Assembly (NCBI GenBank): GCA_036556905.1
Contig: DATBIM010000156.1
Span: forward strand, 2,210-66,209
Direction of reading: 5' to 3'
DNA: 64,000 nucleotides
Source of the DNA: Candidatus Methylomirabilota bacterium
GTDB lineage: Bacteria > Methylomirabilota > Methylomirabilia > Rokubacteriales > CSP1-6
The notes beneath the pieces were generated by a model. It saw only the letters and a list, made by a program, of their open reading frames with translations. It was not told the DNA's origin and did not search any database. Below, piece by piece: positions 17,699 to 39,890 of the stretch; within the stretch, counting starts at the first letter, position 1, and every line of letters begins with the position of its first letter. Made by a program: the position numbers and the translations under genes.

Positions 17699-19309
17699 AT
17701 GGAGGTGCTGAGCCCGCTGGGGGTGGCTGACACCCGGCCCCGGCCACTGGCCAAGCGTCCGGCCCGCCTCGCCGGCTGCCGGGTCGCCGTCCTCGACAAC
17801 TCCAAGCCCAACGCCGACGTGCTGCTGGAACGGCTGGCCGAGCTGCTCGTAGCCCGGGCCGGTGTGGCCGAGGTCCGCCGCTGGCGCAAGCCGGGCAGCT
17901 CCCGAGCGGCCGAGGAGATCGACGCGATCGTCGCGGCCGCCGACGTCGTCCTCACCGGCTCGGCGGACTGAGGCTCCTGCACGTCGTGGAGTATCCACGA
18001 CGCGGCGCAGATCGAGGGGCGGGGAGTCCCCACCGTTGTCCTCGGCACCGACCTGTTCGCCTCGCTGGGCCACAGTGCCGCCGCGGCGCTGGGCCTGCCC
18101 GACCTGCCCCTCGTGACCGTCGCCCACCCGATCGGGGGCGTCGATCCCCATGCCGTGGCGGCCCGCGCTGACGGCGTCCTCGACGCCGTCGTGGCGGCGC
18201 TGACCCGAGCGCCGGCGCACTCGCCCGCCGCGGCGCCCGGTGCGGTGGCCCTGCTGGCCGCCCCCGATGACATCGACGCCTTTCAGGAATTTGCTCTGGC
18301 CGAGGGCTGGGGCGACGGGCTTCCCGTGCTCCCGCCCACTCCTGAGCGAGTCGCGCGTGTGCTGGCCGGCCAGCGTGGCGACCAGGTCGTGGCCACCTTG
18401 CCGCCTCGGCGGGGCGTGGCGACGCTCGAGGCCATTGCGGTCAACGCCGCGCTGGCCGGCGCCGGGCCCGAGCAACTGCCCCTGATCGTGGCCGCCGTGC
18501 GCGCCGTCGCCGACCCCCGCTTCAACCTGGACGCGATCCAGGCCACCACCCACCCCTGCACGCCGCTGGTGATCGTCAACGGCCCCCTCGCTCGGCGCCT
18601 GGGCGTGCACAGCGGAGCCAACGCGCTGGGCCAGGGTCACCGGGCCAATGCGGTCGTGGGCCGCGGGCTGCGGCTCACGCTGCAGAACGTGGGCGGGGCC
18701 CGGGCCGGGCAGGGCGACCGCGCCACGCTCGGGCACCCCGGCAAGTTCACGTACTGCGTCGCCGAGAACGAGGCGGAGTCGCCCTGGGAGCCGCTGCACG
18801 TGGAGCGCGGCTTCGATGCCGCGGCGAGCTGCGTGACGGTGTGCGGTGCCGAGGCGCCCCACAACGTGAATGACCACGGCTCGACGTCCGCCGAGGCTTT
18901 GCTGCTGGCCCTGGCCGGCACCGCGGCGACCACCGGCAACAACAACATCTATCTGGGCGGCGAGCCGCTGATCCTCCTCGGTCCCGAGCACGCGCGGACG
19001 ATCGCCGGATCGGGCTGGTCCAAGCGCGATCTCAAGCGAGCATTGTTCGACCGCGCGCGGGTGCGCCTGGGGGCCTTCAGCGCGGAGAACCTGGCCCGCT
19101 TCGCCACGATCGATCCCGCGCGCTTCCGCGGCCGCTCGCCCGACGACACCGTCACCGTGGCCGTCACGCCGGACGACGTGATGGTGGTGGTGGCGGGGGG
19201 GCCCGGCAAGCACTCCGCCATCGTCCCCACGTTCGGCGCGACGCGCGCGGTGACCGTGCCCGTCGAGGCCCCGGGCGACGCGCCGGTTGCGGGGCCCCGC
19301 TCGCGGTGA
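17699..19309 (+). CDS. UGSC-motif selenoprotein fused to a ~400 aa domain of unknown function (in-frame UGA = Sec at 17969-17971)
   Basis: Same frame continues through TGA 17969-71 (…DVVLTGSAD-U-GSCTSW…). Both flanks are homologous to the stand-alone UGSC protein at 20429-20959. A hairpin follows the UGA. RBS AGGAGG before ATG 17699. Confidence 0.6.
17978..18010 (+). promoter_or_regulatory. candidate bacterial SECIS hairpin for UGA 17969
   Basis: GTCGTGG-AGTAT-CCACGAC (extendable), starting about 11 nt after the UGA. Confidence 0.5.
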
Positions 19310-19340
19310 TAGCGTGGCCGGCGCGAAAGGGAGGAGCCTC

Positions 19341-20432
19341 ATGGCGATCACGTTGACCTCACCGCGCCACGCCGTGGCGAACCTGGATGACGCTATCGAG
19401 TTCTGCTTCCAGCAGGGCTGGAGCGACGGGCTGCCCGTGGTGCCCCCCACCGAGGCCAAGGTGCAGGCCATGCTGGACGCCGCCAAGCTCGATCCCCAGC
19501 ACCAGGTGGCCTACGTGGAGCACCGGGCGGTATCCATCACCGCCGAGAAGGTGGCGATCAACGCGGTGATGGCCGGTTGCCTGCCCGCGTACATGCCGGT
19601 GGTGGTGGCTGCCGTCGAGGCCATCGGGGATCCTCGGTGGTCGTATCATGGCCCGGGCACCTCCACCGCCGGCGCCGGCGTGCTCATGATCGTGAACGGT
19701 CCCATTCGCCGTGAGCTCGACATCAACTGCGGCGACAACCTCTTCGGCCCGGGCTGGCGGTCGAATCTGACCATCGGCCGCGCCGTCCGCCTGATCATGC
19801 GCAACGTGTGCGGCTCGTGGCCGGGACGGCTCGACCGGGGGACGCTGGGCCATCCCGGCAAGCTCTCCTACGTCATCGGGGAAAACGAGGAGGAGAGCCC
19901 GTGGCCGCCGCTCCACGTCGAGCGGGGGCTGCGCCGCGAGCAGAGCGCGGTGACGGTGATGGCGGCGGAGGCGCCGCACCAGATCTACAACCAGCTCTCC
20001 AGCACCGCCGAGGGCGTCCTCACCACGCTCAGCGACGCCATGCGGATCTCCGGCAACGTGATGGGGCAGCCGCACTATGCCCTGATCCTCGCCGGCGAGC
20101 ACATGCGGACGATCGCCGGGAGCGGGTGGGGCAAGGACCAGATCCGGCGCTTCGTGTGGGAGCACACGCAGAACTCCCACGCCCACCTGCGGCGGACCGG
20201 TCGTATGGCGGGTCCCGTGCAGCCCGGCGACGAGGACAGGCTGCGACCGCTGGTGGAGAGCCCGGATGATATCCTGGTTGTGGCCGCCGGAGGCCGGGCC
20301 GGAAGCTTCTCGGCCTACATCCCCGGCTGGGGCAGCAAACGTTCCTCGCAGGCGGTGACAGTGGTGGTCGGAGGTGAGGTGAGCCGCTCGCCGAGCCGAC
20401 CCTTCAACGAGGCAAAGGAGGTCAGGCAATGA
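19341..20432 (+). CDS. conserved protein of unknown function, paralog of the C-terminal domain of the 17699-19309 gene
   Basis: Shared blocks with the upstream gene: GW(S/G)DGLPV(V/L)PPT, TLGHPGK..Y…ENE.ESPW.PLHVERG, TIAGSGW. RBS AGGGAGG before ATG 19341. Confidence 0.55.
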   Translation: MAITLTSPRHAVANLDDAIEFCFQQGWSDGLPVVPPTEAKVQAMLDAAKLDPQHQVAYVEHRAVSITAEKVAINAVMAGCLPAYMPVVVAAVEAIGDPRWSYHGPGTSTAGAGVLMIVNGPIRRELDINCGDNLFGPGWRSNLTIGRAVRLIMRNVCGSWPGRLDRGTLGHPGKLSYVIGENEEESPWPPLHVERGLRREQSAVTVMAAEAPHQIYNQLSSTAEGVLTTLSDAMRISGNVMGQPHYALILAGEHMRTIAGSGWGKDQIRRFVWEHTQNSHAHLRRTGRMAGPVQPGDEDRLRPLVESPDDILVVAAGGRAGSFSAYIPGWGSKRSSQAVTVVVGGEVSRSPSRPFNEAKEVRQ

Positions 20433-20959
20433 TCGAGATCCTCGACCCTACCACCCCGGCCGCCCGCCAGGCCATCGCCTATGCGCCGCGGCCCGGATCA
20501 CTCACGGGCAAGCGTGTCGCGTTGATCGAGAACACCAAGTTCAACTCCGATCGGCTGCTCCAGAAGATCGGCGACATCATGGTCAGGGAGTATGGGGCCG
20601 CCTCCACCCGGATGTGGCGCAAGAAGAACGCCAGCGTGCCGGCGCACGAGGAGATCATCGCCGAGGTGCGCCGAACCTGCGACGTGGTCGTCGCCGGCAT
20701 CGGTGATTGAGGGTCCTGCTCGTCGGGCAGTGTGCTCGACGGAATCGTGCTCGAGAAGGCCGGCGTTCCCTCGGCGTCGATCGTGACCGACGTGTTCGAG
20801 CGGACGGCCCGGGCCATGGCCGAGCAGTGGGGCCTCCCGACCTACCGGTTCCTCATGATGCCGCACCCCATCGCCAACCTCAGCGAGGCCGAGCTGGACC
20901 AGCGAGCTCGCGCGATCGTCTCGGAGGTGGCCAAGCTCCTCCTCCAGGGTCAGGAGTGA
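20429..20959 (+). CDS. UGSC family selenoprotein, stand-alone (in-frame UGA = Sec at 20708-20710)
   Basis: …DVVVAGIGD-U-GSCSSGS… Reading frame continues to 20959. Homologous to both flanks of the UGSC region of the 17699 gene. ATGA overlap with the upstream gene; RBS AGGAGG. Confidence 0.6.
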
Positions 20960-20969
20960 GGCCGGCGCG

Positions 20970-21947
20970 CTGACGCGCACCCGGGATTTTCGGCCGGCCT
21001 GGTGGTGCCGGCATCGGCATCTGCAGACCCTCTGGGGGCCGCTCTTTCGCCGGGGCCGGACCCCCCTGCGGCGCGAGCGCCTGGAGATGGTCGATGGCGA
21101 TTTCGTCGACCTCGACTGGCTCGAGGGTCGGCCAGGGGCTCCCCTGGTGGTGGTGCTTCACGGTCTGGAAGGCTCGATCCGCTCCCACTATGTGGTCGGC
21201 CTGCTCCGGGAGGCGGCGGCTCGGGGCTGGCGTGGGGTCGTGCTGAACTTCCGATCGTGCAGCGGCGAGTTGAACCGCCTGCCCCGGTTCTATCACTCGG
21301 GCGAGACCTCGGATCTGGACGCGGTGATCGCTCGACTGCTGGAGCGGGAGCCCGCGCTCCGCATCGGCGCCATCGGGGTGTCGCTGGGCGGCAACGTGCT
21401 GCTCAAGTGGCTGGGCGAGAGAGAGCTGGACGCGCCCAAGCAGGTCGCGGGCGCCGCGGTGATCTCCGTCCCGTTCGACCTCGCGGCCAGCGCCCGGGCG
21501 CTGGACCGCGGCCTGTCCCGTGCCGTCTACACCAAGAGCTTCCTGAGGACCATGAAACGCAAGGTCGAGGCGAAGGCCGAGCGCTTTCCGGGGTTCGTCG
21601 ACGTGGCGGCGGCCCGCCGGGCCCGCACCTTTGCCGAGTATGACCGCGCCGTCACCGCCCCCCTGAACGGGTTCGCCGACGAGGTGGACTACTGGATGCG
21701 GGCCAGCAGCGGCCCCTACCTGCCGAAGATCCGTCGCCCCACGCTCCTGATCAGCGCCATTGACGACCCCCTGGTGCCGGCGGCGTCATTGCCGGATGTC
21801 AGCGGCCTGCCCGACGGCGTGATTGCGGAGTTCGTGGACCGGGGCGGTCACGTGGGCTTCATCGAGGGCCGGTGGCCGTGGCGGGCGCGCTCCTGGGCGG
21901 AGCGTCGGGCCATGGAGTTCCTGGAAACGGTGTTGGCTGAGGGCTAG
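20970..21947 (+). CDS. YheT-type alpha/beta hydrolase
   Basis: Matches YheT (…CRHRHLQTLWGPLFRR…LEMVDGDFVDLDW…VVVLHGLEGS). Similarity extends upstream of the first ATG (21087), where there is no in-frame ATG/GTG/TTG. CTG 20970 with an upstream GGAGTGAGG is a tentative start. Confidence 0.5.
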   Translation: MTRTRDFRPAWWCRHRHLQTLWGPLFRRGRTPLRRERLEMVDGDFVDLDWLEGRPGAPLVVVLHGLEGSIRSHYVVGLLREAAARGWRGVVLNFRSCSGELNRLPRFYHSGETSDLDAVIARLLEREPALRIGAIGVSLGGNVLLKWLGERELDAPKQVAGAAVISVPFDLAASARALDRGLSRAVYTKSFLRTMKRKVEAKAERFPGFVDVAAARRARTFAEYDRAVTAPLNGFADEVDYWMRASSGPYLPKIRRPTLLISAIDDPLVPAASLPDVSGLPDGVIAEFVDRGGHVGFIEGRWPWRARSWAERRAMEFLETVLAEG

Positions 21948-22888
21948 TGGGTGAGAACGCGCCGAGGGTCCAGCGCGTCCCGGAGCCCGTCACCGATGTA
22001 GTTGATCGACAGCACGGTCAAGAAGATGGCCGTGCCGGGGAACAGCGCCCAGTGTGGGGCGAAGTCGAGATTGTCCTTGGCGTCGAAGAGGATCCGCCCC
22101 CAGGTGGGAATGTCAGGTGGAAAGCCCAGCCCGAGGAACGACAGCGTGGACTCGGCGATGATCGCCGTGGCCACGTCCAGCGAGCCGGCCACGATCACCG
22201 GGCCCATGGCGTTGGGCAGGATGTGACGCACGACCTCGCGAAGGGGTGGGGCGCCCAGGCCTCGGGCCGCTTCCACGAATTCCTTCTCGCGGAGCGACAG
22301 GAACTGGGCGCGGACCAGCCGGGCCACCGGCATCCAGCGGAGCCCGCCGATCACGGCCACGATGAGCACGAACACACCGGCCTCCTGGCCCAGGGTGTTC
22401 TTCAGCATGTCGCGGAAGAGGTAGACGATGAGCAGCAGCAGGGGGAGCTGGGGCAACGACAAGAACAGGTCGGTGAGCCGCATCAACAGGTGATCGATCA
22501 CGCCGCCGAGATAGCCGGAGGCGGCGCCGATGAGCGTGCCGACGGTGATGGCGATGAGCATGGCGGCCACGCCCACGGCCAGCGAGATGCGCCCGCCGTA
22601 GAGCATCCGGGCCAGCAGGTCCTGACCCAGATCGTCGGTGCCGAGCGGGTGCGCCCGCGAGGGGCCCTGCAGCTTGGCCCGGAAGTCGATCTCGTCGATC
22701 GGCACGCGGTAGAGGAGCGGCCCCACCACCACGGCCATGACCATCACGGCCAGCACCAGCGTTCCCCCCATGGCCAGCCGATGCCGCCGGAAGCGGCGCT
22801 GCAAATCGCTCCACAGCGTCTGGCCCGGCGCCGGCCGGGGGAGCGGGGGAGCCCGGACGGTGGCGGGCGACGCCGCGTCGTCGGCCAT
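21944..22888 (-). CDS. peptide/nickel ABC transporter permease (DppC/OppC-like)
   Basis: Typical OppC/DppC TM layout. Start ATG 22888, overlapping the upstream stop. Confidence 0.75.
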   Translation of the reverse strand: MADDAASPATVRAPPLPRPAPGQTLWSDLQRRFRRHRLAMGGTLVLAVMVMAVVVGPLLYRVPIDEIDFRAKLQGPSRAHPLGTDDLGQDLLARMLYGGRISLAVGVAAMLIAITVGTLIGAASGYLGGVIDHLLMRLTDLFLSLPQLPLLLLIVYLFRDMLKNTLGQEAGVFVLIVAVIGGLRWMPVARLVRAQFLSLREKEFVEAARGLGAPPLREVVRHILPNAMGPVIVAGSLDVATAIIAESTLSFLGLGFPPDIPTWGRILFDAKDNLDFAPHWALFPGTAIFLTVLSINYIGDGLRDALDPRRVLTH

Positions 22889-23847
22889 CAGCGGAACGAG
22901 ATCCGGGGGTCGAGCCACCCGTAGGCGAGGTCGGCCACCAGGTTGAACAGCACGACCAGGCACGAGAAGACGAAGGTGATGGCCATGATCACCGGCGTGT
23001 CATTGGCCAGGATGGCCGAGATCAGCAGGGAGCCGATGCCGGGGACCCGGAAGATCTGCTCCGTCACCACCGCCCCGGTGAAGATCTGGGGCAGCTGCAG
23101 CGCCAGCAGCGTGACGACCGGGATGAGGGCGTTGCGGGTGACGTGCTTGAGGATGGTGACGCGCTCGGAGAGCCCTTTGGCCCGCGCGGTGGTGACGTAG
23201 TCCAGTCGGATCACATCGAGCACCGCCGAGCGAGTGAAGCGCGTCAGCGAGGCCGCCTGGAAGAGGCCGAGCACGGTCACGGGCATGATCGCTTGCTTGA
23301 GGTGCTCCCAGTACCATCGCCACCCGGTCGCCGCGATGTCGGCGTGGTAGATGAAGGGCAGCCAGTCGAGATAGATGCTGAAGAACAGGATGAAGAGCAG
23401 GCCGGTGAAGAAGGTCGGCAGGGAGAAGCCGATGAAGGCCAGCGTCGTCGCGATCTGGTCGAAGAAGGAGTAGGGGCGCATGGCCGAGAGCGTCCCCACC
23501 GGCAGCGCGATGAGCAACCCTAGCAGCTGGGCCGAGCCCAGGACCACCAGGGTCGTCGGTAGCCTTTGCCAGATCAGGGTGTCGACGTCCACCCGGCTCA
23601 TGAACGAGAAGCCCCACTCGCCCCGCAGCATCGCCGTGAGCCAGCGCACGTAGCGCAGCGGCAGGGGGTCGTCCAGGCCGAACTTCGCGCGCAGGTTCAA
23701 CCGGACCTCGGCGGGGACGTTGGGGTTGGTGGCCAGCTCTTCGAAGGGGTCGCCGGGGGCCAGGGCCAGGACCGTGAACAGCACGACGCTGATCCCCAGG
23801 AGGGCGGGAATCGCGATCAGGAGCCGGCGGACGAGGTACCTGGACAT
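22888..23847 (-). CDS. peptide/nickel ABC transporter permease (DppB/OppB-like)
   Basis: DppB-like N-terminus MSRYLVRRLL… and EAA-loop region. Confidence 0.75.
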   Translation of the reverse strand: MSRYLVRRLLIAIPALLGISVVLFTVLALAPGDPFEELATNPNVPAEVRLNLRAKFGLDDPLPLRYVRWLTAMLRGEWGFSFMSRVDVDTLIWQRLPTTLVVLGSAQLLGLLIALPVGTLSAMRPYSFFDQIATTLAFIGFSLPTFFTGLLFILFFSIYLDWLPFIYHADIAATGWRWYWEHLKQAIMPVTVLGLFQAASLTRFTRSAVLDVIRLDYVTTARAKGLSERVTILKHVTRNALIPVVTLLALQLPQIFTGAVVTEQIFRVPGIGSLLISAILANDTPVIMAITFVFSCLVVLFNLVADLAYGWLDPRISFR

Positions 23848-23895
23848 CTCGCTTGAGCGGGGCCGGGGCGAGCGCCCCGGCCCGGGCCCGTGGCG

Positions 23896-25692
23896 CTACG
23901 CGCGTGACCAGTAGGGCAGATTCCAGACGTCCACGTCCCAGCCGCTCTGGACGACGTCCCGCATACGGTTGGAGATCCCGGCCACGCGCGGACGATAGAC
24001 GACCGGGATGACCACCACGTGTTGGATGACCAGGTCGTTCATTTTGATGAACAGGGCCGCCCGCTTGACCGGATCCATCTCGGCCTCGGCGGCTTTCCAG
24101 AGCTTGTCGTACTCCTCGTTGCGCCAGCGAGTCTTGTTGCGCCCCTGCCACTTGTTGGCCCGGGACGCCACCTCCCAGGAGGTGAACTGGTCCATGAAGC
24201 GCTGGGGATCGGGCTCGGTCATCGTGGTCGTGTACATCTGGATGTCGGTGGCGAAGTGATTGTAGGTATCCCAGTTCGCCGCGTCCGACGAGAAGTACAC
24301 GGAGGCGGTGACAGTCTTGAGCTCCACGTCGATGCCGGCCTTGGCGCAGGCCTGCTTGACGATCTGCTGGTTCTTCTGGCGGGGGGCGTTGATGGAGGTC
24401 TGGTACACGAGCTTGAGCCTCTTGCCGTCCTTGGCCCGCATGCCGTCGCCGCCCCGCTTCCAGCCGGCCTGGTCCAGGATCTGGTTGGCCTTGTCGATGC
24501 TGAACTCGAAGCGGGTGTTCTTCGAGCGGACCTTCTCGGGGGCGTTGAGGAAGTTGGCCGTGGCCAGCCCGGTGCGCCCATAGATCTGCTCTTGCACCGA
24601 GGCCCGGTCCACGAGGAGATTGAGGGCCTGGCGCACCGCGGGGTCGGTGAGGAAGGGATGCTTGCTCTTGGCCGAGGAGCGCTCGCCCTCGACCTCGGTC
24701 CACGGGTCGGTATTGTTGAGCTGGATGTGCTCGATGTTGCCGGTGGCGGCGATGTCCACCCGCCCCTTGCCGCCCTGCTCCAGGCGCTTGAGGATGTCGT
24801 CCTCCACCTGCAGGTTCCAGGCATAGTCGTATTCCCCGGTCTGGATGACCGCGCGCGCCGCCGAGACAGCGTCGCCACCTCCCTTGATCTCGATCTGGTC
24901 GAAGAACGGCCGGTTGGCCACGTGATAATTGGGGTTGATCTCGCCCCGCACGATGTCGCCGGGCTTGAAGTCCACGAACCGGAAGGCCCCGGTGCCGATG
25001 GGCTTGAGGTTGGTGGGGGCCTCGCGCGACTTGTCACCCTTGAACGCCGCGAAGAGATGCTTGGGGATGATCATCCCGGTCGCCCCGCAGAAGGGGGCCG
25101 ACCAGAACGGGCTAGGGTTCTTGAAGACGATCTTGACGGTGTGGCTGTCGAGCTTGTCGATGCGCGCGATGTCCCGGTAGGGGCCGGCCGTGAGCGCGGC
25201 CGTCCCCGGATCCATCACGTACTCCCAGTTGAAGACGACGTCGTCGGCGGTGAAGGGCTTGCCGTCGTGCCAGGCGACGTTCTTCCTGAGCCGCCAGGTC
25301 ACCGACAACCCGTCCTTGGCGACCATCCCGTTCTGGAGGCTGGGCACCTCGGCGGCCAGGGTCGGGACGATGTTGCCGTCCGGGTCATAGGAGCCCAACG
25401 GCTCGTAGAATACTCGCGAGGCGATCTGGTCCTTGGTGCCCGTCGCGAAGTGCGGATTGAGCAGCGTGGGCGCCTGCCACAGCAAGATCTTGACCGGCCC
25501 CCCGCCGCCCCGCTTGCTCGGGGTGAACCCCGGGGTTTTGGGCTGGGCCTGAGCGATGCCGGCCGAGGCCAGCATCTGGCTCACCATGGGCGCGGTCAAC
25601 CCCAGCGCCAGCATCGACGTCGTGAAGGCGCGGCGCGAGAGGCGTCCGGCCTTGACCTGTCGCAGCAACTCCTGCAGCGCGTGCTCATCCAT
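23896..25692 (-). CDS. ABC transporter substrate-binding protein, family 5 (peptide/nickel), Tat signal
   Basis: RRAFTTSMLALGL twin-arginine signal; ~600 aa SBP-5 architecture. Confidence 0.7.
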   Translation of the reverse strand: MDEHALQELLRQVKAGRLSRRAFTTSMLALGLTAPMVSQMLASAGIAQAQPKTPGFTPSKRGGGGPVKILLWQAPTLLNPHFATGTKDQIASRVFYEPLGSYDPDGNIVPTLAAEVPSLQNGMVAKDGLSVTWRLRKNVAWHDGKPFTADDVVFNWEYVMDPGTAALTAGPYRDIARIDKLDSHTVKIVFKNPSPFWSAPFCGATGMIIPKHLFAAFKGDKSREAPTNLKPIGTGAFRFVDFKPGDIVRGEINPNYHVANRPFFDQIEIKGGGDAVSAARAVIQTGEYDYAWNLQVEDDILKRLEQGGKGRVDIAATGNIEHIQLNNTDPWTEVEGERSSAKSKHPFLTDPAVRQALNLLVDRASVQEQIYGRTGLATANFLNAPEKVRSKNTRFEFSIDKANQILDQAGWKRGGDGMRAKDGKRLKLVYQTSINAPRQKNQQIVKQACAKAGIDVELKTVTASVYFSSDAANWDTYNHFATDIQMYTTTMTEPDPQRFMDQFTSWEVASRANKWQGRNKTRWRNEEYDKLWKAAEAEMDPVKRAALFIKMNDLVIQHVVVIPVVYRPRVAGISNRMRDVVQSGWDVDVWNLPYWSRA

Positions 25693-29395: not shown

Positions 29396-30556
29396 ATGAG
29401 GCGGCGCCCTGCGCCCCGGCCTGGCCTCCGTCCCGGCGTGCTTCCCTATCAGGCGCTGCGGGCCGGCGTCGCCGCGGGCTGGATCCGCGCCGCCGCTCCG
29501 CTCGAGGACCAGCAATTCCAGCCGGCCAGTCTCGACCTGCGTCTGGGCGCCGTGGCCTATCAGCTCCGCGCCAGCTTCCTGCCCTACCGGGAGTCCGTCG
29601 AAGCCCGGCTGCGCCAGGAGACTCCGGCAGACAGTGACCTCGTCATCGATCGACTGTCGCTGGAGGCGGGGGCGACGCTCCAGCGGGGCTCGGTCTACCT
29701 GGTACCCCTCCTGGAATCGCTGGTGCTGCCGCCGTCCGTGCGCGGACGGTGCAATCCCAAGAGCACCACGGGCCGCCTCGACATCTTTACCCGCGTCATC
29801 ACCGACGCCGCTCCGCGCTTCGACGAGATTCGCGCCGGCTACGCCGGCCCGCTCTATCTCGAAGTCTCCCCCCAGTCCTTCCCGGTGCGCGTGCAGCGCG
29901 GCCAGTCGCTGAACCAGCTGCGGTTGCTGAGCGGCCAGGCGCTGATCTCCGATCCGGGACTGGCCGACGTGTACCGCGCGACGCCGCTCCTCTACGACGA
30001 TGACGACTGTCCGATTCCGCTCGCGCGGGTTGTCTTCAACGACGGGCTGTGCATGGGGGTGGATCTCTCGGGCCGCCACACCGGGGGCATCATCGGCTAC
30101 CGGGCGCACCCCAACCCTCCCGCCGTGGATTTGAGCCGGGTTGATTTCTACGATCCGGCCGAGTTCTGGGAACCCATCAAGCGGTCCGGTCGCGACGCCT
30201 ACATCCTGGAAGCGAACCGGTTCTACATCCTGGTCTCGCGCGAGCGCATCCGGGTGCCCCCCGACTTCGCCGCCGAGATGGTGGTCTACGACGCCGGGGC
30301 CGGGGAGATCCGGACCCACTACGCGGGTTTCTTCGATCCCGGCTTCGGCTACGGGGACGGTCGAGTCCTGGGCACCAAGGTGGTGATGGAGGTGCGGGCC
30401 CGGGAGGTCCCCTTCCTCCTCTACGACGGCCAGATCTCCTTCAAGGTGCTCTTCGAGCGGCTGGCCAGCCGGCCCGAGCGCGTGTACGGGGTGGGCCTGA
30501 ACTCCTCCTACCAGCACCAGACCCTGACCCTGAGCAAGCACTTCCGCCGGGCCTGA
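29396..30556 (+). CDS. dcd: 2'-deoxycytidine 5'-triphosphate deaminase, long (~380 aa) form
   Basis: …LPYQALRA…FQPASLDLRLG…YQLRASFLP… matches the long-form dCTP deaminase family. Confidence 0.55.
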   Translation: MRRRPAPRPGLRPGVLPYQALRAGVAAGWIRAAAPLEDQQFQPASLDLRLGAVAYQLRASFLPYRESVEARLRQETPADSDLVIDRLSLEAGATLQRGSVYLVPLLESLVLPPSVRGRCNPKSTTGRLDIFTRVITDAAPRFDEIRAGYAGPLYLEVSPQSFPVRVQRGQSLNQLRLLSGQALISDPGLADVYRATPLLYDDDDCPIPLARVVFNDGLCMGVDLSGRHTGGIIGYRAHPNPPAVDLSRVDFYDPAEFWEPIKRSGRDAYILEANRFYILVSRERIRVPPDFAAEMVVYDAGAGEIRTHYAGFFDPGFGYGDGRVLGTKVVMEVRAREVPFLLYDGQISFKVLFERLASRPERVYGVGLNSSYQHQTLTLSKHFRRA

Positions 30557-30640
30557 AAAGAACCGCTGGCCTTCCGCATCTGTTAGAATTGAGCGGGGAC
30601 GGTGGTATGGGCGTTAGCCACCGACCGACGGAGAGCGCCT

Positions 30641-30844
30641 ATGGCAGAGCAGAAGAAGAAAGAGACGAGGCCCACCAAGCCCTCCGAGGGCGGCGACGGG
30701 GCGGCGGCAGGCAGCCCGGAGCTGGCCAAGAAGGGCAAGAAGATCAAGGAAGACATCGACAAGCTCCTCGACGAGATCGATGAGATTCTCGAAGAGAATG
30801 CCGAGGAGTTCGTGAAGAGCTACGTGCAGCGGGGAGGCCAGTAG
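30641..30844 (+). CDS. pup: prokaryotic ubiquitin-like protein Pup (C-terminal GGQ)
   Basis: …IKEDIDKLLDEIDEILEENAEEFVKSYVQRGGQ* is near-identical in pattern to the actinobacterial Pup C-terminus. RBS GGAGAG before ATG 30641. Confidence 0.75.
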   Translation: MAEQKKKETRPTKPSEGGDGAAAGSPELAKKGKKIKEDIDKLLDEIDEILEENAEEFVKSYVQRGGQ

Positions 30845-30847
30845 CCG

Positions 30848-31060
30848 GTGCCCCTGTACGAGTACCGCTGTGCCGGCTGCAATCAGGAGTTCGAACGCTA
30901 TGTGGCCACGCCGACCGCCGCGGTAACGTGCCCGGCCTGCACAAGCGGGAACGTCAAGCGCAAGCTCTCGCTGTTCGCCTTCAAGGCGGAAGGGGGAGCG
31001 ATGTCGACCGCCATGCCCTCGGGCGGCTCCTGCTGCGGGGGCGGTTGCTCCTGCCACTGA
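30848..31060 (+). CDS. FmdB family zinc-ribbon protein
   Basis: MPLYEYRCAGCNQEFE…CPAC…; Cys/Gly-rich tail. Confidence 0.65.
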   Translation: MPLYEYRCAGCNQEFERYVATPTAAVTCPACTSGNVKRKLSLFAFKAEGGAMSTAMPSGGSCCGGGCSCH

Positions 31061-31089: not shown

Positions 31090-32004
31090 ATGGATCTTCG
31101 CCGGCTCGAGGTCTTCGTGAAAGTCGCCGAGCTGGGGAGCTTCTCGCGCGCCGCCGAGGCGCTCTTTCTCACCCAGCCGACGGTGTCCGAGCATGTGCGC
31201 GCTCTCGAGGAGGACCTGGGTGTGCAACTGCTCGATCGCCTGGGCCGGGGAGCCGCCCCCACTCCGGCGGGACAGCTCCTGCTGGGCTACGCCCACCGCA
31301 TCCTGGCACTCATGCGCGAGGCGCGTCAGGCTGTCGATCGATTCCAGGGCCGTTTGCTCGGAGAGCTCATCGTGGGCGGCAGCACCATCCCCGGCGAGTA
31401 CATCCTTCCCGCCCTCATCGGCCAGTTCAAGGCCAAGTATCCCGATATCTCCATCAGCCTGCGCGTCGGTTCCAGCCAGCAGATCAGCGAGTGGGTGGAA
31501 GAGGGTCGGGTGGAGATCGGTGTCGTCGGGGCTCGTCCGGGCAGCCGGGCGCTGGTCGCCCGCGAGTTGATGGCCGACGAGATGGTGATCGTGGTGCCTC
31601 CCGAGCACCCCTGGACCCGACGGCCGAGCGTCGGGCTGGCCGACATCCGCGCGGAACCGCTCCTGCTGCGGGAACGCGGCTCGGGGACGCGGCAAGCGCT
31701 GGAGCGCGCGTTGGCCGAGGCGGGGACGGACCTGAGCGCCTTCCGGGTGGCTGGCGAGATGGGGTCCACCCAGGCGGTGAAGCAGGCGGTGCGAGCCGGG
31801 ATCGGCGTGACATTGCTGTCCAGGCTGGCCGTCGAGGACGAGTGCCGGGCCCGGCTCCTCGTGTGCGTGCGCGTGGAGGGTCTCGACGTTCGCCGGTCGT
31901 TCCACCTGGTGACCCATCGCGAACGCAGTCGCTCGCCGCTGGCGCAGGCCTTCCTGGAGTTCATAGAATCCCAGGCCGCCTCGGGGGCATCGCAAGAGCC
32001 GTGA
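31090..32004 (+). CDS. LysR family transcriptional regulator
   Basis: N-terminal HTH …FSRAAEALFLTQPTVSEHVRALE… and a LysR substrate-binding domain. Confidence 0.8.
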   Translation: MDLRRLEVFVKVAELGSFSRAAEALFLTQPTVSEHVRALEEDLGVQLLDRLGRGAAPTPAGQLLLGYAHRILALMREARQAVDRFQGRLLGELIVGGSTIPGEYILPALIGQFKAKYPDISISLRVGSSQQISEWVEEGRVEIGVVGARPGSRALVARELMADEMVIVVPPEHPWTRRPSVGLADIRAEPLLLRERGSGTRQALERALAEAGTDLSAFRVAGEMGSTQAVKQAVRAGIGVTLLSRLAVEDECRARLLVCVRVEGLDVRRSFHLVTHRERSRSPLAQAFLEFIESQAASGASQEP

Positions 32005-33062
32005 CGGGCAAAGAGATCCGTCTCACCGCCTACGCCTCCTGCGCGGGCTGAGCGTCCAAGATGGCTCCTGGAGATCTCCAGGAGGTGCTGGCCGTGCTCA
32101 GATCCGATCGCCCGACGGCCGCCCACGAGAACCTGCTGGTGGGCCTGGGACGCGCGGACGATGCGGCCGTCTACCGGTTGGCTCCCGATCTGGCTATCGT
32201 CGAGACGCTCGACTTCTTTCCGCCGGTCGTCGATGACCCTTATGTGTGGGGTGCCGTCGCCGCGGCCAATGCCATGTCCGACGTCTATGCGATGGGGGGC
32301 GAGGTGATGTTCGCCCTGGCCATCGCCGGCTTTCCCCGCGACATGCCCAAGTCGATCATCGCCGATGTCTTCCGGGGCGCCGCGGACAAGGTGGCCGAGG
32401 CGGGAGGCGTCGTGGCCGGGGGCCATACCGTCATCGACAACGAGCCCAAGTATGGGCTCTGTGTTACCGGCCGAATCCATCCCGATCGCGTCCTCCTCAA
32501 GGGCGGCCTCCGCCCGGGTGACCGTCTGTTCCTGTCCAAGCCCCTGGGCACCGGCGTCATCACCACGGCGGGCAAGGACGATGCGGCTCCGAGCGATATT
32601 CTGGCCGGCGCCGTCGCCAGCATGCTGAGGCTCAACCGGGTGGCGGCCCAGGTGGCCATTGCCGGCGGCGCCCGGGGCGCGACCGATGTCACGGGGTTCG
32701 GCCTGCTCGGTCACGCCGGCGAGATGGTGGAGGCGTCGGGGGCTGGGATCGAGGTGTCCTCCCGCCGCCTTCCGCTGCTGCCCGGCGCCCTGGCCCTCGC
32801 CGAGAAGGGACACTTCAGCGGGGGGATGAAGCGCAACCGCCGCTACGTCGAGGGCGTGTTCGGGCCCCGGCTCACGATCGACGCCGCGGTGGCTCCCGCG
32901 CTCGCTTCCCTCATGTTCGAGGCAGAGACCTCCGGGGGGCTGCTCTTCTCCGTCACGCCTGACCGGGCCCAGCGCGTGCTGGCCGACTTTGCCACTCGGG
33001 GGGAAACGGGCGTCGAGATCGGCGTCGTCCTCAGCGAGCCGCTGATTCGCGTCGTCCCCTGA
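32001..33062 (+). CDS. selD: selenide, water dikinase (selenophosphate synthetase) SelD with active-site selenocysteine (UGA 32049-32051)
   Basis: GTG 32001 overlaps the LysR stop (GTGA). N-terminus MTGKEIRLTAYASCAG-U-ASK… matches the SelD Sec/Cys loop. Downstream AIR-synthase-like fold. Hairpin after the UGA. Confidence 0.75.
32066..32085 (+). promoter_or_regulatory. candidate SECIS hairpin for selD UGA
   Basis: Perfect inverted repeat CTCCTGGAGA/TCTCCAGGAG, 15 nt downstream of the UGA. Confidence 0.5.
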
Positions 33063-33074
33063 CCGCCGAGGCGT

Positions 33075-33620
33075 CTAGGGCAGAAGCCCTCTCACGCGAG
33101 CCAGAACGTCATCGGTCGCCCAGTCCAGCTCGCCAACGACAGAGTAGCGGACAAGACCATCCGGACCGACCAGGAAGGTGGCTGGCAGCGTACGCACCCG
33201 CCAGGCCTCGATGGCCTCGTGGCGAGGATCGCGCAGCATCGGAAAGTCAACGGGCACGTGCCCCAGAAAGCTATTGATACGGGAGGCCGACTCGCCGTAG
33301 TTGACGCCCAGCACCGCGAAGGGCTGGCCGGCCAGCCGCTCGCGGAGCCGTTGGATCGAAGGCATCTCATCGCGGCAGGGCGGGCACCACGTCGCCCAGA
33401 AGTTGATCAAGACCACGCGGCCCTGGTACCGGGCGAGCGTATGGGTGGTTCCGCCGAGATCCTTGAGCTCCAGCGGTGGCGTTGGTCCGCGCCAGGGCCG
33501 AAACCGATCGACGTTTTCCGCGTCGGCCTGGACCCACAGCGCCAGCACGAGGAGCAGCGCGGCCGTGACGAGGCGCGGGCAGCTCCACCCGGGCGGAAGG
33601 CCGGCCGAGGGGTCAGGCAC
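33075..33620 (-). CDS. TlpA family thiol-disulfide oxidoreductase, secreted
   Basis: FWATWCPPC motif with an N-terminal signal/anchor. Confidence 0.7.
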   Translation of the reverse strand: MPDPSAGLPPGWSCPRLVTAALLLVLALWVQADAENVDRFRPWRGPTPPLELKDLGGTTHTLARYQGRVVLINFWATWCPPCRDEMPSIQRLRERLAGQPFAVLGVNYGESASRINSFLGHVPVDFPMLRDPRHEAIEAWRVRTLPATFLVGPDGLVRYSVVGELDWATDDVLARVRGLLP

Positions 33621-34728
33621 GGACCTCGCGCGCCGCGATCGTGTATTTGAAGTTGTCCGGATCGAGGCTGTCGAGCCGCCCTTCGTCCGTCTCGGCCTGG
33701 GGATACATCAGGAAGCCCAGCCTGCTCTTCACGGTCGCGTGCGGCAACGCCAGGTCGTGGGCCATGTTGTACGCCAGCCAGTTGCTCTCCCAGCTCCCGA
33801 AGAGCCGCGGGCGCACGGTCTTCAGGAGCGGGTGATCGACCTTGACCCACTCGCTGGTCTCTTCTCGGGCCACCTTGGCGACGTCGGCCGGGTCCATCGC
33901 CACCCAGCCGTAGTCGCGGAGGAACACGTCAGCCCGGCAGTGCTGGGCTCGAGTGATGTTGGGGCTATTGGCGCCCAGAGCCTTGTACCCGAACGCCGAA
34001 GGGGCGACCCGAATGCCGTAGATGTCCCGGGCCGGCAGCCCCGCGGCTCGGGACAGGGCCACGAACAGGCCGTTGAGATCGGCACATTTGCCTCCGAAGC
34101 TCTTCGTCTCCAGCATGGTCTTGACATCGCCGATGCCACAGCCGCGAACCTTGGGCTCACGGTAGGTGTTGCTGACCACCCAGTCATAGATGGCCCGCGC
34201 CTTATCGACATCCCCCGACGCGCTCTTGGTGATCGTCAACGCCGTGTCGCGGACGATGCCATCTGTGGGCAGGAGCTCGGTGGGCTGCGTCCAGAACGTC
34301 AGTGCTGCCGGGTCCTCTTTAGGGGCGCTCTTGCGGGACCAGTCGACGGCGCGGTCTTGAGTCTTGAACCGACTCACCAGCTCCACCACGGGATGCGGCT
34401 CAGCCTGGGCGAACTCGGCATAGAGCATGACGGCGCGGTACTTCGGCTCGGTCAGGAGCTGCGCCGTCCCGGCGTTGCCCGACCACCGGTTGTCGAGGAC
34501 CTGCTGGTGTTCGTCATTGACCGCCGGCACGGGAAGCCAGACGCGTGTGATGCCCTTGGGCCACTGGATCTCCACGCGGGTGGTGACCTCGAACGTGCGC
34601 CACGTACCAGGGCGGGGGTCGAACATTTTCTCGTCGGCGAGGACCCGGGTTCGGGCGCCCGGCAGATCGGAGAACGCCGCGAGGCTTGCGCAAGCCGTCG
34701 TTGTCTTGAGGAAGGTTCGTCGATTCAC
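33613..34728 (-). CDS. transglutaminase-like cysteine protease superfamily protein, Tat signal
   Basis: GTG start gives MNRRTFLKTTTACASLAA (Tat motif). Core GGKCADLNGLFVALSRAAGLPAR. RBS AGGAG 7 nt upstream. Confidence 0.65.
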   Translation of the reverse strand: MNRRTFLKTTTACASLAAFSDLPGARTRVLADEKMFDPRPGTWRTFEVTTRVEIQWPKGITRVWLPVPAVNDEHQQVLDNRWSGNAGTAQLLTEPKYRAVMLYAEFAQAEPHPVVELVSRFKTQDRAVDWSRKSAPKEDPAALTFWTQPTELLPTDGIVRDTALTITKSASGDVDKARAIYDWVVSNTYREPKVRGCGIGDVKTMLETKSFGGKCADLNGLFVALSRAAGLPARDIYGIRVAPSAFGYKALGANSPNITRAQHCRADVFLRDYGWVAMDPADVAKVAREETSEWVKVDHPLLKTVRPRLFGSWESNWLAYNMAHDLALPHATVKSRLGFLMYPQAETDEGRLDSLDPDNFKYTIAAREVRA

Positions 34729-34877
34729 GCGTGAGCTCCTTTTGGTTGGTGGCGGTCGCGTGAGCGGAATGATGCGTCGATTTCGGTGACTTACAAATCG
34801 GAAATATAGATAGTTCTTGCCTGATGTTATCGTCGAGCTCGATCCGAGAGAGGGGGAGGGTCCGGGGTCGGCGTCGA

Positions 34878-35162
34878 TTACGGCGAAGGGGGCTGAGTCC
34901 GAAGGACTGTCAGCACTCGCTGCTTGAGCTCGGGGGGGATCGAGACATCGCGCAGGCTGCGCGTGGCGCGGATGGTGCCCCGATAGGTGTTCAGAAAGGC
35001 TACGCAGGGAGCGCAGCCGTCGATGTGCCACTCCAGCAGCTCAGCGGTCCGGCGGGGCAGGGAGCCGTCGAGATAGTCCGCCAGCAGCTCCGCGATCTGT
35101 CGACACTCGATCTCGGAGGGTGCGGCGCCGGCCGGATCTGAAGACCCCCGGGTATCTGACAT
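34878..35162 (-). CDS. anti-sigma factor, zf-HC2 type
   Basis: HxxxCxxC motif (EWHIDGCAPC) in a 94 aa protein. No sigma gene adjacent. Confidence 0.5.
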   Translation of the reverse strand: MSDTRGSSDPAGAAPSEIECRQIAELLADYLDGSLPRRTAELLEWHIDGCAPCVAFLNTYRGTIRATRSLRDVSIPPELKQRVLTVLRTQPPSP

Positions 35163-36493: not shown

Positions 36494-37507
36494 ATGACGC
36501 AGGAGGCCAGGGTCCAGGAGTTCGTCGCCGGCTTCGGCGCGCTGCGGAGCGAGGTGGAGAAGATCATCGTCGGGCAGCGCGAGATCATCGATCACGTCCT
36601 CATCGGGATGTTCGCCGGTGGCCATCTGCTCCTGGAGGGCGTGCCGGGCCTGGGCAAGACGCTCCTCATCAAGACGCTAGCCGAAGGGCTGGAGCTGTCC
36701 TTCTCGCGCATCCAGTTCACGCCGGATCTCATGCCGGCCGACATCATCGGCACGAACATCATCGTGGAGGACGCCTCGGGCCGGAAGCACTTCGAGTTCC
36801 AGCACGGGCCCATCTTCGCCCATATTCTGTTAGCCGACGAGATCAATCGGGCCACGCCCAAGACGCAGTCGGCCCTGCTGGAGGGGATGCAGGAAGGCTA
36901 CGTCACCGTGGGCGGGGCCTCCCGGCCGCTGCCGGTCCCGTTCTTCGTCCTGGCCACACAGAATCCCATCGAGATGGAGGGCACCTACCCCTTGCCGGAG
37001 GCCCAGCTGGACCGCTTCATGTTCAAGCTGCGCGTGCGCTATCCCGCCATCGACGAGCTCAACGCGATCATCGATCGCACCACCCAGATCCGTCAGGTGG
37101 CGGTCCAGCGCGTGATGAGCGGGCCCGGTGTGATCGGTTATAGAGAGCTGATCCGCGAGGTGCCCATCGCCTCTCATGTCCGCGACTTCGCGTCGGCGGT
37201 GGTCATGGCTACGCACCCGGAGTGGGAGCACGCCCCCGACATCACCCGGCGCTTCGTCCGCTACGGAGCCAGCCCCCGGGGGGCTCAGGCGCTGGTGCTG
37301 GGGGCCAAGGTGCGGGCCTTGTGTCAGGGGCGATTCAATGTGAGCGTGGAGGATCTCAAGGCGCTGGCCGCGCCGGCGCTCCGGCACCGCGTGATCCTGA
37401 ACTTCGAAGGTGAGGCCGAGGCCGTGGACACCGACACGCTCATCGGCGATATCGTCGCCGGCGTCGAGCAACACGCGACGCAGGGCAAGGAGCTCTTTCT
37501 CCGCTGA
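36494..37507 (+). CDS. MoxR family AAA+ ATPase
   Basis: GVPGLGKT Walker A, …LLADEINRATPKTQSALLEGMQE…. Confidence 0.85.
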   Translation: MTQEARVQEFVAGFGALRSEVEKIIVGQREIIDHVLIGMFAGGHLLLEGVPGLGKTLLIKTLAEGLELSFSRIQFTPDLMPADIIGTNIIVEDASGRKHFEFQHGPIFAHILLADEINRATPKTQSALLEGMQEGYVTVGGASRPLPVPFFVLATQNPIEMEGTYPLPEAQLDRFMFKLRVRYPAIDELNAIIDRTTQIRQVAVQRVMSGPGVIGYRELIREVPIASHVRDFASAVVMATHPEWEHAPDITRRFVRYGASPRGAQALVLGAKVRALCQGRFNVSVEDLKALAAPALRHRVILNFEGEAEAVDTDTLIGDIVAGVEQHATQGKELFLR

Positions 37508-37525
37508 TCGCACCTGGAGGGCCTG

Positions 37526-38986
37526 ATGGCCGATAGGGACGAGCCTCTCCCCGAGCTCGACGCGCTGGTACGCCGCATCGTCAGCCAGGTGCGCTGGCGT
37601 CGGGCCGAGCACTTCGCGCTGCGCGGCGTGTTCTGGGGCGCCGTCGCTGGGGTCATCGTCCTGCTCCTGAAAGTTGTGGTCGGCGCCTACTGGGCGTCCG
37701 TCCTGGCCGGCGCCTTCGTCGTGGCTGGCCTCCTGGGGGGCGGCTGTTGGGGCCTGGCCCGCCGGGTGGCCCCGCTCGCGGCCGCCCGGCTCGGTGACCG
37801 GGCCTTCGGGCTGGAGGACCGTGTGGCCACCGCCCTGGAGTGGGCGGGCCGGGCCGACCGGACACCGCTGGTGGATTCGCTCATCGCCGACGCTCGCACG
37901 CGGGCGTCCCGGTTGACCCCACGTCAGATCGTGCCACGGGTACTGCCCCGCGAGGTGAAGTGGCTGCCGGCACCGGCGCTGGCGGCCCTCGTCCTGGTGC
38001 TGAGCCCTCCGGTGCCGCTCCCGGCCGGCCGGCTGTTCGACCTGCCGACCGGGGCCGAGGAGGCCGAGTCAACGGACCGATCGGCTGGTGACCTGCTTCA
38101 GGAAGACAAGCGGCCGGCGGCGAAGGATCCCCTCCGCCGCCCCGCTCTGGAGGAGCGCGACTACATGCCGCGGACGGCCGGGGGCGGAGCCCCGACCGCG
38201 GGAGATCTGAGCGCGATCTTCAAGGACACCTCGCTCGGCAACCAGCGGCCCGACTTCAACAGCTTCCTCAAGAAGGGCGACGAGCGCCTCAAGCTGCTCG
38301 AGCAGGTGGACCGCCTGCCCGATCTGCAGTCGGACTTCACGAACAATCAGTACAAGATGGTGTTCCGTAAGTCCAAGGCCCTGCGGGGCGGCCTGCGCCC
38401 GGATCAGATCTCGCCGCAGAAGCTGCGCGAGCTGCTCGAGGAGATGGAGCGCCTGGGCCGCAAGGGCGGCAACTGGAGTTCCGACGTGGGCGAGGGCATG
38501 GAGGCCCTGGAGTACGGCGACCAGGATCGCGCCATGGACGCCATGGAGAAGGCCCTCAACAAGCTCCGGGCCATGGAGGAAGGAAAGCGCTCGGGCCGGG
38601 GGCTTCGCGGTGGTCGCGAGACCGATCGCGACCGGGAGCGTGGCCGGGGCGGATCGAGCGCGGGTGGCGAGGATCCGGATTTCGGTGAGAGCGAAGGGCT
38701 GTTGCCCGGCAAGGGCAAGAGCCCTTCGCCGAAGGGCGAGGCCTCCAAGCGCTTGCGCGCCAACCCTTATGACGTGGGCGTGGAGGGCGAGTCCCGGCCG
38801 GGCCGCAAAGACGGCTATGACACGAACCTCACCGGGCGCGCCGGCCACACACCCTCCCGCCTCACTTACCTGGGGGTCATCGGCCAGTACCGCAAGGCGA
38901 TGGAGGATGCGCTGGTCCGCGAACAGGTGCCCCGTGACTACCACGAGCAGATTCGCGACTACTTCCAGTCCCTCGACGAGCGCTGA
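37526..38986 (+). CDS. hypothetical membrane protein with a long charged low-complexity region (Bat-cluster associated)
   Basis: Two N-terminal TM helices, RDRERGRGG-rich centre, conserved-looking C-terminus. Lies between MoxR and DUF58. Confidence 0.4.
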   Translation: MADRDEPLPELDALVRRIVSQVRWRRAEHFALRGVFWGAVAGVIVLLLKVVVGAYWASVLAGAFVVAGLLGGGCWGLARRVAPLAAARLGDRAFGLEDRVATALEWAGRADRTPLVDSLIADARTRASRLTPRQIVPRVLPREVKWLPAPALAALVLVLSPPVPLPAGRLFDLPTGAEEAESTDRSAGDLLQEDKRPAAKDPLRRPALEERDYMPRTAGGGAPTAGDLSAIFKDTSLGNQRPDFNSFLKKGDERLKLLEQVDRLPDLQSDFTNNQYKMVFRKSKALRGGLRPDQISPQKLRELLEEMERLGRKGGNWSSDVGEGMEALEYGDQDRAMDAMEKALNKLRAMEEGKRSGRGLRGGRETDRDRERGRGGSSAGGEDPDFGESEGLLPGKGKSPSPKGEASKRLRANPYDVGVEGESRPGRKDGYDTNLTGRAGHTPSRLTYLGVIGQYRKAMEDALVREQVPRDYHEQIRDYFQSLDER

Positions 38987-38989
38987 GCG

Positions 38990-39880
38990 GTGCCGGCGGC
39001 CACCCACCACGGCTTTTTCAGCTCGGAGTTCCTGGCCCAGCTCGAGCGCTTGACCCTGGCCTCCCGCCGCACCTTCCGGGGACGGGTGAAGGGCGAGCGG
39101 CGGAGCCCCCGCAGGGGGCAGAGCGTCGAGTTCGCCGACTACCGGCCCTACGGGATCGGAGACGACCTCCGGTACGTCGACTGGAACATCTACGGGCGGC
39201 TGGAGCGTCTGCACGTGAAGCTGTTCGTCGACGAAGAGGATCTCTGCGTGCATCTGCTCGTGGACGGGTCGAGCTCTATGGCCTTCGGCCAGCCGACCAA
39301 GCTGCGCTACGCGGCCCGGGTGGCGGCGGCGCTCGGCTTCGTGGGGCTGGTGAGCCTGGAGCGCGTGGGCATCGGTGTGCTTCGCGAGAAGGTGAGCGAA
39401 GGGTGGGCGCCCACTCGCGGGCGTAACCAGTTCGTGACGCTGGTGGACTTCCTCTCGCGACTCGAGGCCGGGGGGGCCACCAGCCTCAACCGCGGCCTGA
39501 GCGACTACGCCGTGCGCGCCCGCGAGCCGGGGCTGGCCATTCTGATCTCCGACCTGCTAGACCCTGCCGGCTTCGAGAGCGGGGTCCGGGCGCTGCTCGA
39601 GCGCCGGTTCGAGGTGCACGTGATCCACGTGCTGGCCGCGGAGGAGCTGCACCCCACCCTGGCCGGAGACCTCCGCCTGCACGACAGCGAGACCGACGCG
39701 ACGCTCGAGATCACCATCGACGGCGAGGCGCTGAGTGGTTATCGGCAGCGGCTCGGGCAGTTCCTGCAGCGGGTGGAGGAGTTCTGCCGTTCTCAGGAGA
39801 TCGGCTACCGGCGGGTGAGCACCGAGATCCCGGTGGAGGAGTTCGTCCTGTCCCACCTGCGGGGTCTGGTGCTGGGGTGA
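38990..39880 (+). CDS. DUF58 domain protein (MoxR-associated, VWA-like)
   Basis: …EFADYRPYGIGDDLRYVDWNIYGR… DUF58 signature. Confidence 0.75.
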   Translation: MPAATHHGFFSSEFLAQLERLTLASRRTFRGRVKGERRSPRRGQSVEFADYRPYGIGDDLRYVDWNIYGRLERLHVKLFVDEEDLCVHLLVDGSSSMAFGQPTKLRYAARVAAALGFVGLVSLERVGIGVLREKVSEGWAPTRGRNQFVTLVDFLSRLEAGGATSLNRGLSDYAVRAREPGLAILISDLLDPAGFESGVRALLERRFEVHVIHVLAAEELHPTLAGDLRLHDSETDATLEITIDGEALSGYRQRLGQFLQRVEEFCRSQEIGYRRVSTEIPVEEFVLSHLRGLVLG

Positions 39881-39890
39881 GGGAGGACCG

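Follow-up and report, generated by a model that had tools for sequence, protein, structure and literature searches.

A probable two-locus Pup-proteasome system in Candidatus Rokubacteria, with the Pup gene set apart from the enzyme genes

The stretch of DNA analysed here (64,000 nucleotides; hereafter, the window) carries a small open reading frame at positions 30641-30844 of the forward strand, running from an ATG at 30641 to a TAG at 30842-30844, whose 67-aa product (MAEQKKKETRPTKPSEGGDGAAAGSPELAKKGKKIKEDIDKLLDEIDEILEENAEEFVKSYVQRGGQ) has the C-terminal stretch ...LDEIDEILEENAEEFVKSYVQRGGQ and RGGQ as its last residues. The features on which the analysis relies are the following.

19287..21947, forward strand: a block of genes for a 381-aa protein, two UGSC proteins and an alpha/beta-hydrolase
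21944-25692, reverse strand: Opp operon, directly after the hydrolase-UGSC block in the window
29396..30556, forward strand: long-form dCTP deaminase gene, dcd (DCD_N and DCD_C in Pfam; NF005734, 438 bits)
30629..30632, forward strand: GGAG ribosome-binding site, 9-12 nt upstream of the pup ATG, read from the sequence
30641..30844, forward strand: pup, 67-aa prokaryotic ubiquitin-like protein with C-terminal GGQ (PF05639, TIGR03687)
30848..31060, forward strand: FmdB-family zinc ribbon, 70 aa (PF09723, 49.1 bits vs. 34.4; TIGR02605, 53 bits vs. 31.3)
31090..32004, forward strand: LysR-family regulator (Pfam/NCBIfam assignment)
32061..33062, forward strand: selD (TIGR00476, 325 bits)

The ATG at 30641 was taken as the start, rather than an upstream GTG at 30602, because all homologues begin with MAEQ. 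Judged by its sequence, the frame is a genuine pup gene and its product is Pup proper: the protein matches the Pfam Pup model along its full length (PF05639, 80.9 bits vs. a cut-off of 27) and the NCBIfam equivalog-domain model for "ubiquitin-like protein Pup" (TIGR03687, 62.9 bits vs. 41.45), and it aligns to the M. tuberculosis Pup chains in PDB entries 7PX9, 3M9D, 4BJR and 7OXY, which bears out the identification made in the first-pass annotation. Over the last 26 residues, the differences from M. tuberculosis Pup are conservative substitutions only, and the C-terminal helical region, which docks on the Mpa coiled coil and in the PafA/Dop groove (3M9D being the Mpa-Pup structure, 4BJR PafA-Pup and 7OXY Dop-Pup), is invariant across about 70 Rokubacteria species. 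Size and ending also fit the Pup family (67 aa, GGQ; homologues end in GGQ or GGE only), and the GC3 of the gene is 0.83. When one genome per species was searched with the Pup sequence, 80 loci were obtained, the best of them 99% and 96% identical and nearly all labelled Candidatus Rokubacteria, Rokuibacteriota or Methylomirabilota, while the identical protein was found on at least 23 further independent contigs (JGI, ENA, NCBI) with the same gene order every time. The host is accordingly a member of Candidatus Rokubacteria, phylum Methylomirabilota (NC10), as anticipated by the earlier suggestion of a Pup-bearing lineage outside the Actinobacteria. Promoter, terminator and Rfam scans around pup gave nothing informative.

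Among L044, L052, L057, L070, L081, L083 and L088, pup loci of the Rokubacteria/Methylomirabilota type are found in MAGs with the labels Nitrosocosmicus (an archaeon), Deferrimicrobiaceae, Binatia and Baltobacteraceae, and bins with the labels Saccharibacteria, Sungbacteria and Omnitrophota have Pup C-termini that are nearly identical. Bin contamination or mislabelling is the likely source of the former four labels.

None of the enzymes that act on Pup is encoded near the gene. In the 64-kb window, 39 ORFs were scanned with Pfam and none proved to be Mpa, Dop, PrcA, PrcB or PafA; six-frame tblastn of the window with Mpa, Dop, PrcB, PrcA and PafA of the Methylomirabilota type (from L089, plus the PafA of L079) returned nothing, and the same search with the Rokubacteria enzymes described below gave a best E value of 0.02, that is, noise and no remnants. 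The description of this pup as locally orphaned is thus upheld over the full 64 kb by the Pfam scans and both tblastn sets. The window locus does not show the canonical order mpa-dop-pup-prcB-prcA-pafA, in which pup lies between dop and prcB, and the neighbours originally named (a long dCTP deaminase, an FmdB zinc ribbon and LysR-selD) are as stated according to Pfam and NCBIfam. LysR and selD represent conserved downstream synteny, and we do not think it likely that they belong to the Pup system.

Several other features of the window are worth recording in their own right. A transglutaminase-core protein with a weak TAT-signal match is encoded three genes downstream of pup (33613-35031, reverse strand), adjoined by a thioredoxin-fold redoxin (33075-33620, reverse strand), and this pair is kept near selD in many Rokubacteria loci. 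Further on, positions 36494-45645 encode a MoxR AAA ATPase, a 486-aa protein without a Pfam match, a DUF58 protein, a 1469-aa BatA/VWA/GATase1-like protein and a TPR protein; these genes resemble a Bat/aerotolerance-type operon and are kept downstream of the pup neighbourhood in relatives. Two adjacent ORFs with coding-like GC3 and no Pfam match, 18113-19309 (398 aa) and 19287-20432 (381 aa), precede the two small UGSC-domain genes and are paralogous to each other; their homologue in L094/L098 is ~42% identical to the first and ~76% to the second. In a 923-kb long-read contig (L003; ENA ERZ25039469 contig_27710), several genes that the window has in one piece are fragmented, among them those for the MFS transporter, DsbD and the Opp permease and binding protein, and homopolymer or indel assembly errors are to be assumed there before any of them is called a pseudogene.

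The placement of pup in the window is an order-wide, fixed architecture and is not peculiar to one genome. About 60 Rokubacteria species share the order GHMP kinase, (optionally an MFS transporter), dcd, pup, zinc ribbon, (optionally a 2-oxoacid:ferredoxin oxidoreductase), LysR, selD, the optional insert between the zinc ribbon and LysR being an indolepyruvate/2-oxoacid:ferredoxin oxidoreductase found in some species only, and none of these roughly 60 species has a Pup enzyme gene within 10 kb of dcd-pup-zinc ribbon. The gene directly upstream of pup encodes a dCTP deaminase in all Rokubacteria (e.g., window 29396-30556); about half of the species have the long two-domain form and the rest a short 183-aa form (L050 9409-9960 and ~28 other loci), and the occurrence of long and short dcd at one position looks like non-orthologous replacement in place. 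Some Rokubacteria MAGs also have a second, divergent pup (L086 10001-11344; L087 2399-3745), with the same C-terminus ...VLEENAEEFVKSYVQRGGE and a different N-terminal half. It is followed within 7-10 nt by the gene for a 378-aa DUF6062 protein and then by a Na+/H+ exchanger gene, with no zinc ribbon, and the pairing with DUF6062 is kept in two MAGs.

The sister order, Methylomirabilales, indicates what the arrangement may have been before. In L071, the order is pup-zinc ribbon-mpa-dop-prcB-prcA-pafA; in L075, L076 and L081, pup-zinc ribbon is followed by mpa, and in L082 by a partial mpa fragment at the contig end. L089 has zinc ribbon-mpa-dop-pup-prcB-prcA-pafA, and L072 and L088 show the canonical gene order. 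Upstream of pup, the Methylomirabilales-type genomes have a Mrp/NUBPL gene and a MoCF-biosynthesis gene, and no dcd; therefore, the pup-zinc ribbon pair is the older of the two linkages, dcd-pup occurs in Rokubacteria alone, and we rejected the idea that the dcd-pup linkage is ancestral. Based on the order pup-zinc ribbon-mpa and onwards in Methylomirabilales, we propose that an ancestral Methylomirabilota operon, pup-zinc ribbon-mpa-dop-prcB-prcA-pafA, would have broken in Rokubacteria between the ribbon gene and mpa. The junction between pup-zinc ribbon and mpa is a rearrangement point that is marked also by an integrase in L084: a phage-type integrase gene (10688-11875, reverse strand; no tRNA gene nearby) lies there directly after pup-zinc ribbon, at the site where its close relative L082 has mpa (10790 onward).

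The zinc-ribbon gene stayed with the tag gene. In the window, its start codon follows the pup stop codon at a distance of 3 nt, and it encodes two CxxC pairs and a Cys/Gly-rich tail, the protein being an exact match to NCBI HEY7366496.1 (from a "Methylomirabilota bacterium" TPA MAG); in most loci the start lies 0-7 nt after the pup stop. An N-terminal MPxYEYxC motif and the two CxxC pairs are conserved among 70 distinct zinc-ribbon sequences, and an HMM built from these 70 sequences places the ribbon next to pup in nearly all Methylomirabilota loci, compared to none of 57 non-Rokubacteria Pup loci and none of 42 Rokubacteria enzyme loci. The ribbon gene heads the full operon together with pup in Methylomirabilales, and when the operon split in Rokubacteria it remained with the tag and not with the enzymes. 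The PDB, searched with the zinc ribbon, gave neither a solved structure for it nor a relative of known function, and no functional literature on a pup-linked zinc ribbon was found; this conserved partner is the sole unexplained element of the Pup system here.

The enzymes themselves are encoded in a separate operon that is widespread in Rokubacteria. As bait, we used P0159, a GC-rich Pup_ligase representative from a library clustered at 50% identity, whose source is an ENA sample that also yields a Rokubacteria contig; it retrieved 451-aa PafAs labelled by NCBI as Candidatus Rokubacteria or Rokuibacteriota, which comprise about 120 PafA clusters at 75-100% identity. Two other routes were rejected: the best 120 matches to a Methylomirabilales PafA profile were all from Methylomirabilis/NC10, with no Rokubacteria PafA among them, and GC content is not diagnostic of Rokubacteria (the Methylomirabilales locus L071 is itself 72% GC), clusters at 50% identity being too broad as well. 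The context of the 451-aa PafA is always mpa(≈610)-dop(≈499)-prcB-prcA-pafA(451), and every Rokubacteria locus that spans dop-prcB lacks pup (L091-L098, L104-L118, L184-L191); even a permissive search of the Rokubacteria enzyme loci with every Pup variant found none. As a positive control, the same metagenome scan showed pup between dop and prcB in every non-Rokubacteria locus spanning these two genes except L161. All five enzymes pass their equivalog cut-offs (TIGR03689, 03688, 03690, 03691 and 03686, in L094 and others) and keep the Mpa Walker motifs and GQYL tail, the catalytic Thr of PrcB (G|TTxLA) and the Dop loop, so that, as far as such motifs tell, they are apparently competent. Their PafA is 62-63% identical to that of the Methylomirabilota-type reference, L089. 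The enzyme operon and the pup unit were also recovered from one genome bin, MAG159, which belongs to a sub-clade other than that of the window, with the enzymes on contig JBIOTN010000004 and dcd-pup-zinc ribbon on contigs JBIOTN010000190 and JBIOTN010000089, a link that depends on metagenomic binning and in which the two pup loci may mean that two Rokubacteria populations are mixed.

Two further groups of PafA genes deserve mention. In a set of loci with 62-64% GC (L117, L119-L123 and L125), PafA is 86-87% identical to that of the Rokubacteria operon, and the sequence upstream of pafA, up to 10 kb, contains none of prcA, prcB and dop; the enzyme operon may be further dispersed in these lineages. 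The PafA ORF of this group has 521 aa, suggesting a possible N-terminal extension. Separately, P0159 and P0305-P0343 (449 aa) form a clade of stand-alone PafAs, with P0159 54% identical to the operon PafA. A stand-alone PafA-like gene adjoins gas-vesicle genes in L090 (9834-11188; ENA ERZ25039469 contig_81474), a Rokubacteria-like contig of 70.6% GC with a tetranucleotide correlation of r=0.994 to Rokubacteria L077; this copy is frameshifted, probably by a long-read assembly error.

For the window's own genome, the evidence is of a different kind. In another Rokubacteria lineage, orthologues of the hydrolase-UGSC block directly abut the pafA of the enzyme operon, and the window genes at 19287-21947 are 62-77% identical to their counterparts in L094, L098 and L099 by tblastn. 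In the window, this block is followed by an unrelated Opp operon (the Opp genes being only 22-40% identical between the window and the L094-type arrangement), and therefore we infer that the enzyme operon is present elsewhere in the window genome. Among the PafA contigs examined, none came from the window's samples or from MAG CDHKAN, and no enzyme operon could be assigned to the genome or strain of the window; the one PafA that NCBI labels in the style of the window's zinc-ribbon protein has an accession that belongs to another assembly, and the metagenome scan for enzyme loci covered samples other than those of the window. Hence, the proposal of a dispersed Pup system, which the first-pass annotation had offered as one option, holds for the order, where a pup-less operon lies elsewhere, and in the case of the window genome it is backed by lineage-level evidence and by purifying selection on pup.

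This selection is very strong. Among 64 distinct Rokubacteria sequences, the last 26 codons of pup show a pS of 0.394 and a pN of 0.0058, i.e., a pN/pS of about 0.015 in the C-terminal part of the gene. The window pup differs from those of L001, L003 and L004 by 10-13 synonymous and 0 nonsynonymous changes, and comparisons inside the window's clade gave 10-15 synonymous vs. 0-3 nonsynonymous changes. At the last position, 35 loci have Q and 35 have E, and no other residue occurs; this equal split, together with the Dop equivalog in the Rokubacteria enzyme operon, fits the earlier remark that a GGQ ending needs Dop. Such a substitution pattern is as expected for a tag that would be recognised by Mpa, PafA and Dop and could be matured by a deamidase, and it argues against Pup being a relic in the window's own clade.

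Alternatively, the sub-lineage to which the window belongs might have lost the enzyme operon and kept Pup for a role independent of conjugation, e.g., binding the zinc-ribbon protein. The 64 kb without enzyme genes or remnants would agree with such a loss, as would the site that has the operon in L094 and L098 and lacks it in the window, the failure to link any enzyme locus with the clade of the window, and the tight coupling of the pup-zinc ribbon pair, which stays together when the operon splits. However, the residues conserved in Pup coincide exactly with the contacts to Mpa, PafA and Dop in the solved complexes, synonymous changes greatly outnumber nonsynonymous ones in the window's clade (the counts given above), the two terminal residues seen (Q or E) are the only ones compatible with gamma-carboxylate ligation, and the enzyme operon is widespread in Rokubacteria, with its roughly 120 PafA clusters at 75-100% identity. 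We consider loss of the operon improbable on these grounds.

Nor is it at all probable that the window Pup is conjugated mainly by some other enzyme, such as a stand-alone PafA paralogue or a transglutaminase acting on the C-terminal Gln. A distinct 449-aa Pup_ligase clade does exist, with one member on the Rokubacteria-like contig L090, but this paralogue belongs to a different sub-clade, no link between it and pup was found, and canonical PafA is present in the lineage. As for the transglutaminase-core gene three genes downstream of pup, it is encoded on the opposite strand, and a weak TAT-signal match makes export of its product probable; for these reasons we rejected it as a direct Gln-Lys cross-linker. 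Finally, it is hardly credible that the frame is open by chance or belongs to a pseudogene in decay: GC-rich DNA yields spurious ORFs (86 of at least 40 aa overlap the surrounding 10-kb stretch), but full-length matches to curated HMMs, a GC3 of 0.83, conservation in about 80 genomes and the C-terminal pN/pS of about 0.015 already refute it.

Hence, we favor the hypothesis, which we regard as very probable, that the window gene encodes a functional tag and that the Pup-proteasome system to which it belongs is canonical, with its genes at two separate loci in Rokubacteria. Under this hypothesis, Pup would be made from the small unit dcd-pup-zinc ribbon, whose pup and ribbon genes probably share a transcript and are coupled in translation, and the enzymes for tagging and degradation would come from the remote, pup-less operon mpa-dop-prcB-prcA-pafA. 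Dop would first deamidate the C-terminal Gln of Pup to Glu, PafA would then ligate Pup-Glu to lysines of target proteins, and the Mpa ATPase, on recognising the tag, would deliver the target to the PrcAB 20S proteasome, with Dop also able to remove the tag. These biochemical steps are carried over from the established mycobacterial pathway; the novelty lies in the organisation of the Pup system and not in its mechanism.

A more tentative suggestion concerns the FmdB-type zinc-ribbon protein, which might possibly be a dedicated part of the Methylomirabilota Pup system that has escaped recognition (e.g., a chaperone of Pup, an Mpa adaptor or a factor controlling tag supply). If it is, the split would let tag production be controlled apart from the enzymes, possibly together with dcd; if the link is only historical, the finding amounts to a gene-order curiosity in a known system. 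Binding of the ribbon protein to Pup or Mpa is the one question raised here that merits an experiment.

Almost all work on the Pup-proteasome system concerns Actinobacteria. The results reported here point to a whole order of abundant, uncultured soil bacteria with a complete Pup system in which the tag gene sits apart from the enzymes, and to a phylum-wide pairing of the tag gene with a small zinc-ribbon gene. Searches that look for pup beside dop and prcB would miss the Rokubacteria gene or misread it as absent. Automated annotation already names the Rokubacteria PafA and window-type proteins correctly, and no description of Pup in Rokubacteria, of a split pup locus or of the zinc-ribbon partner was found in the literature.

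It is useful to compare this arrangement with the systems already known. UBact resembles the window protein in being a small, disordered, Pup-related tag that occurs in non-actinobacterial lineages together with homologues of Mpa, Dop, PafA and the proteasome. It is, however, a family separate from Pup, with the C-terminus R-T/S-G-E/Q, and we rejected a UBact identity for the window protein since the latter ends in RGGQ and passes the Pup equivalog model. The Methylomirabilales/NC10 locus shares with that of Rokubacteria the phylum, the pup-zinc ribbon pair, a nearly identical Pup C-terminus and closely related enzymes, and differs in that the pair is contiguous with the enzymes there (L071) and has Mrp/NUBPL and a MoCF gene upstream instead of dcd. 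Dop/PafA homologues in NC10 draft genomes were noted by Hecht et al. 2020 (PMC7947786), where the pupylation pathway is placed in Actinobacteria and Nitrospirae, with sporadic homologues elsewhere, including NC10. With the actinobacterial (mycobacterial) system, the Rokubacteria system has in common the tag with its GGQ C-terminus, five enzymes that pass the equivalog models, and the catalytic and docking motifs. In Actinobacteria, the gene order is "rigidly conserved", with pup between dop and prcB (PMC3511204), whereas Rokubacteria, a non-actinobacterial candidate lineage, have an unlinked pup between dcd and the FmdB zinc ribbon and an enzyme operon without pup. A further parallel is the proteasome-less pupylation of Corynebacterium and relatives, where the components are likewise not all kept together, a separation by which tagging can be regulated apart from degradation (PMC3511204). 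The direction of the separation is different in the two cases: Corynebacterium and its relatives are wholly without prcBA and have pup beside dop, whereas Rokubacteria keep prcBA and have moved pup away.
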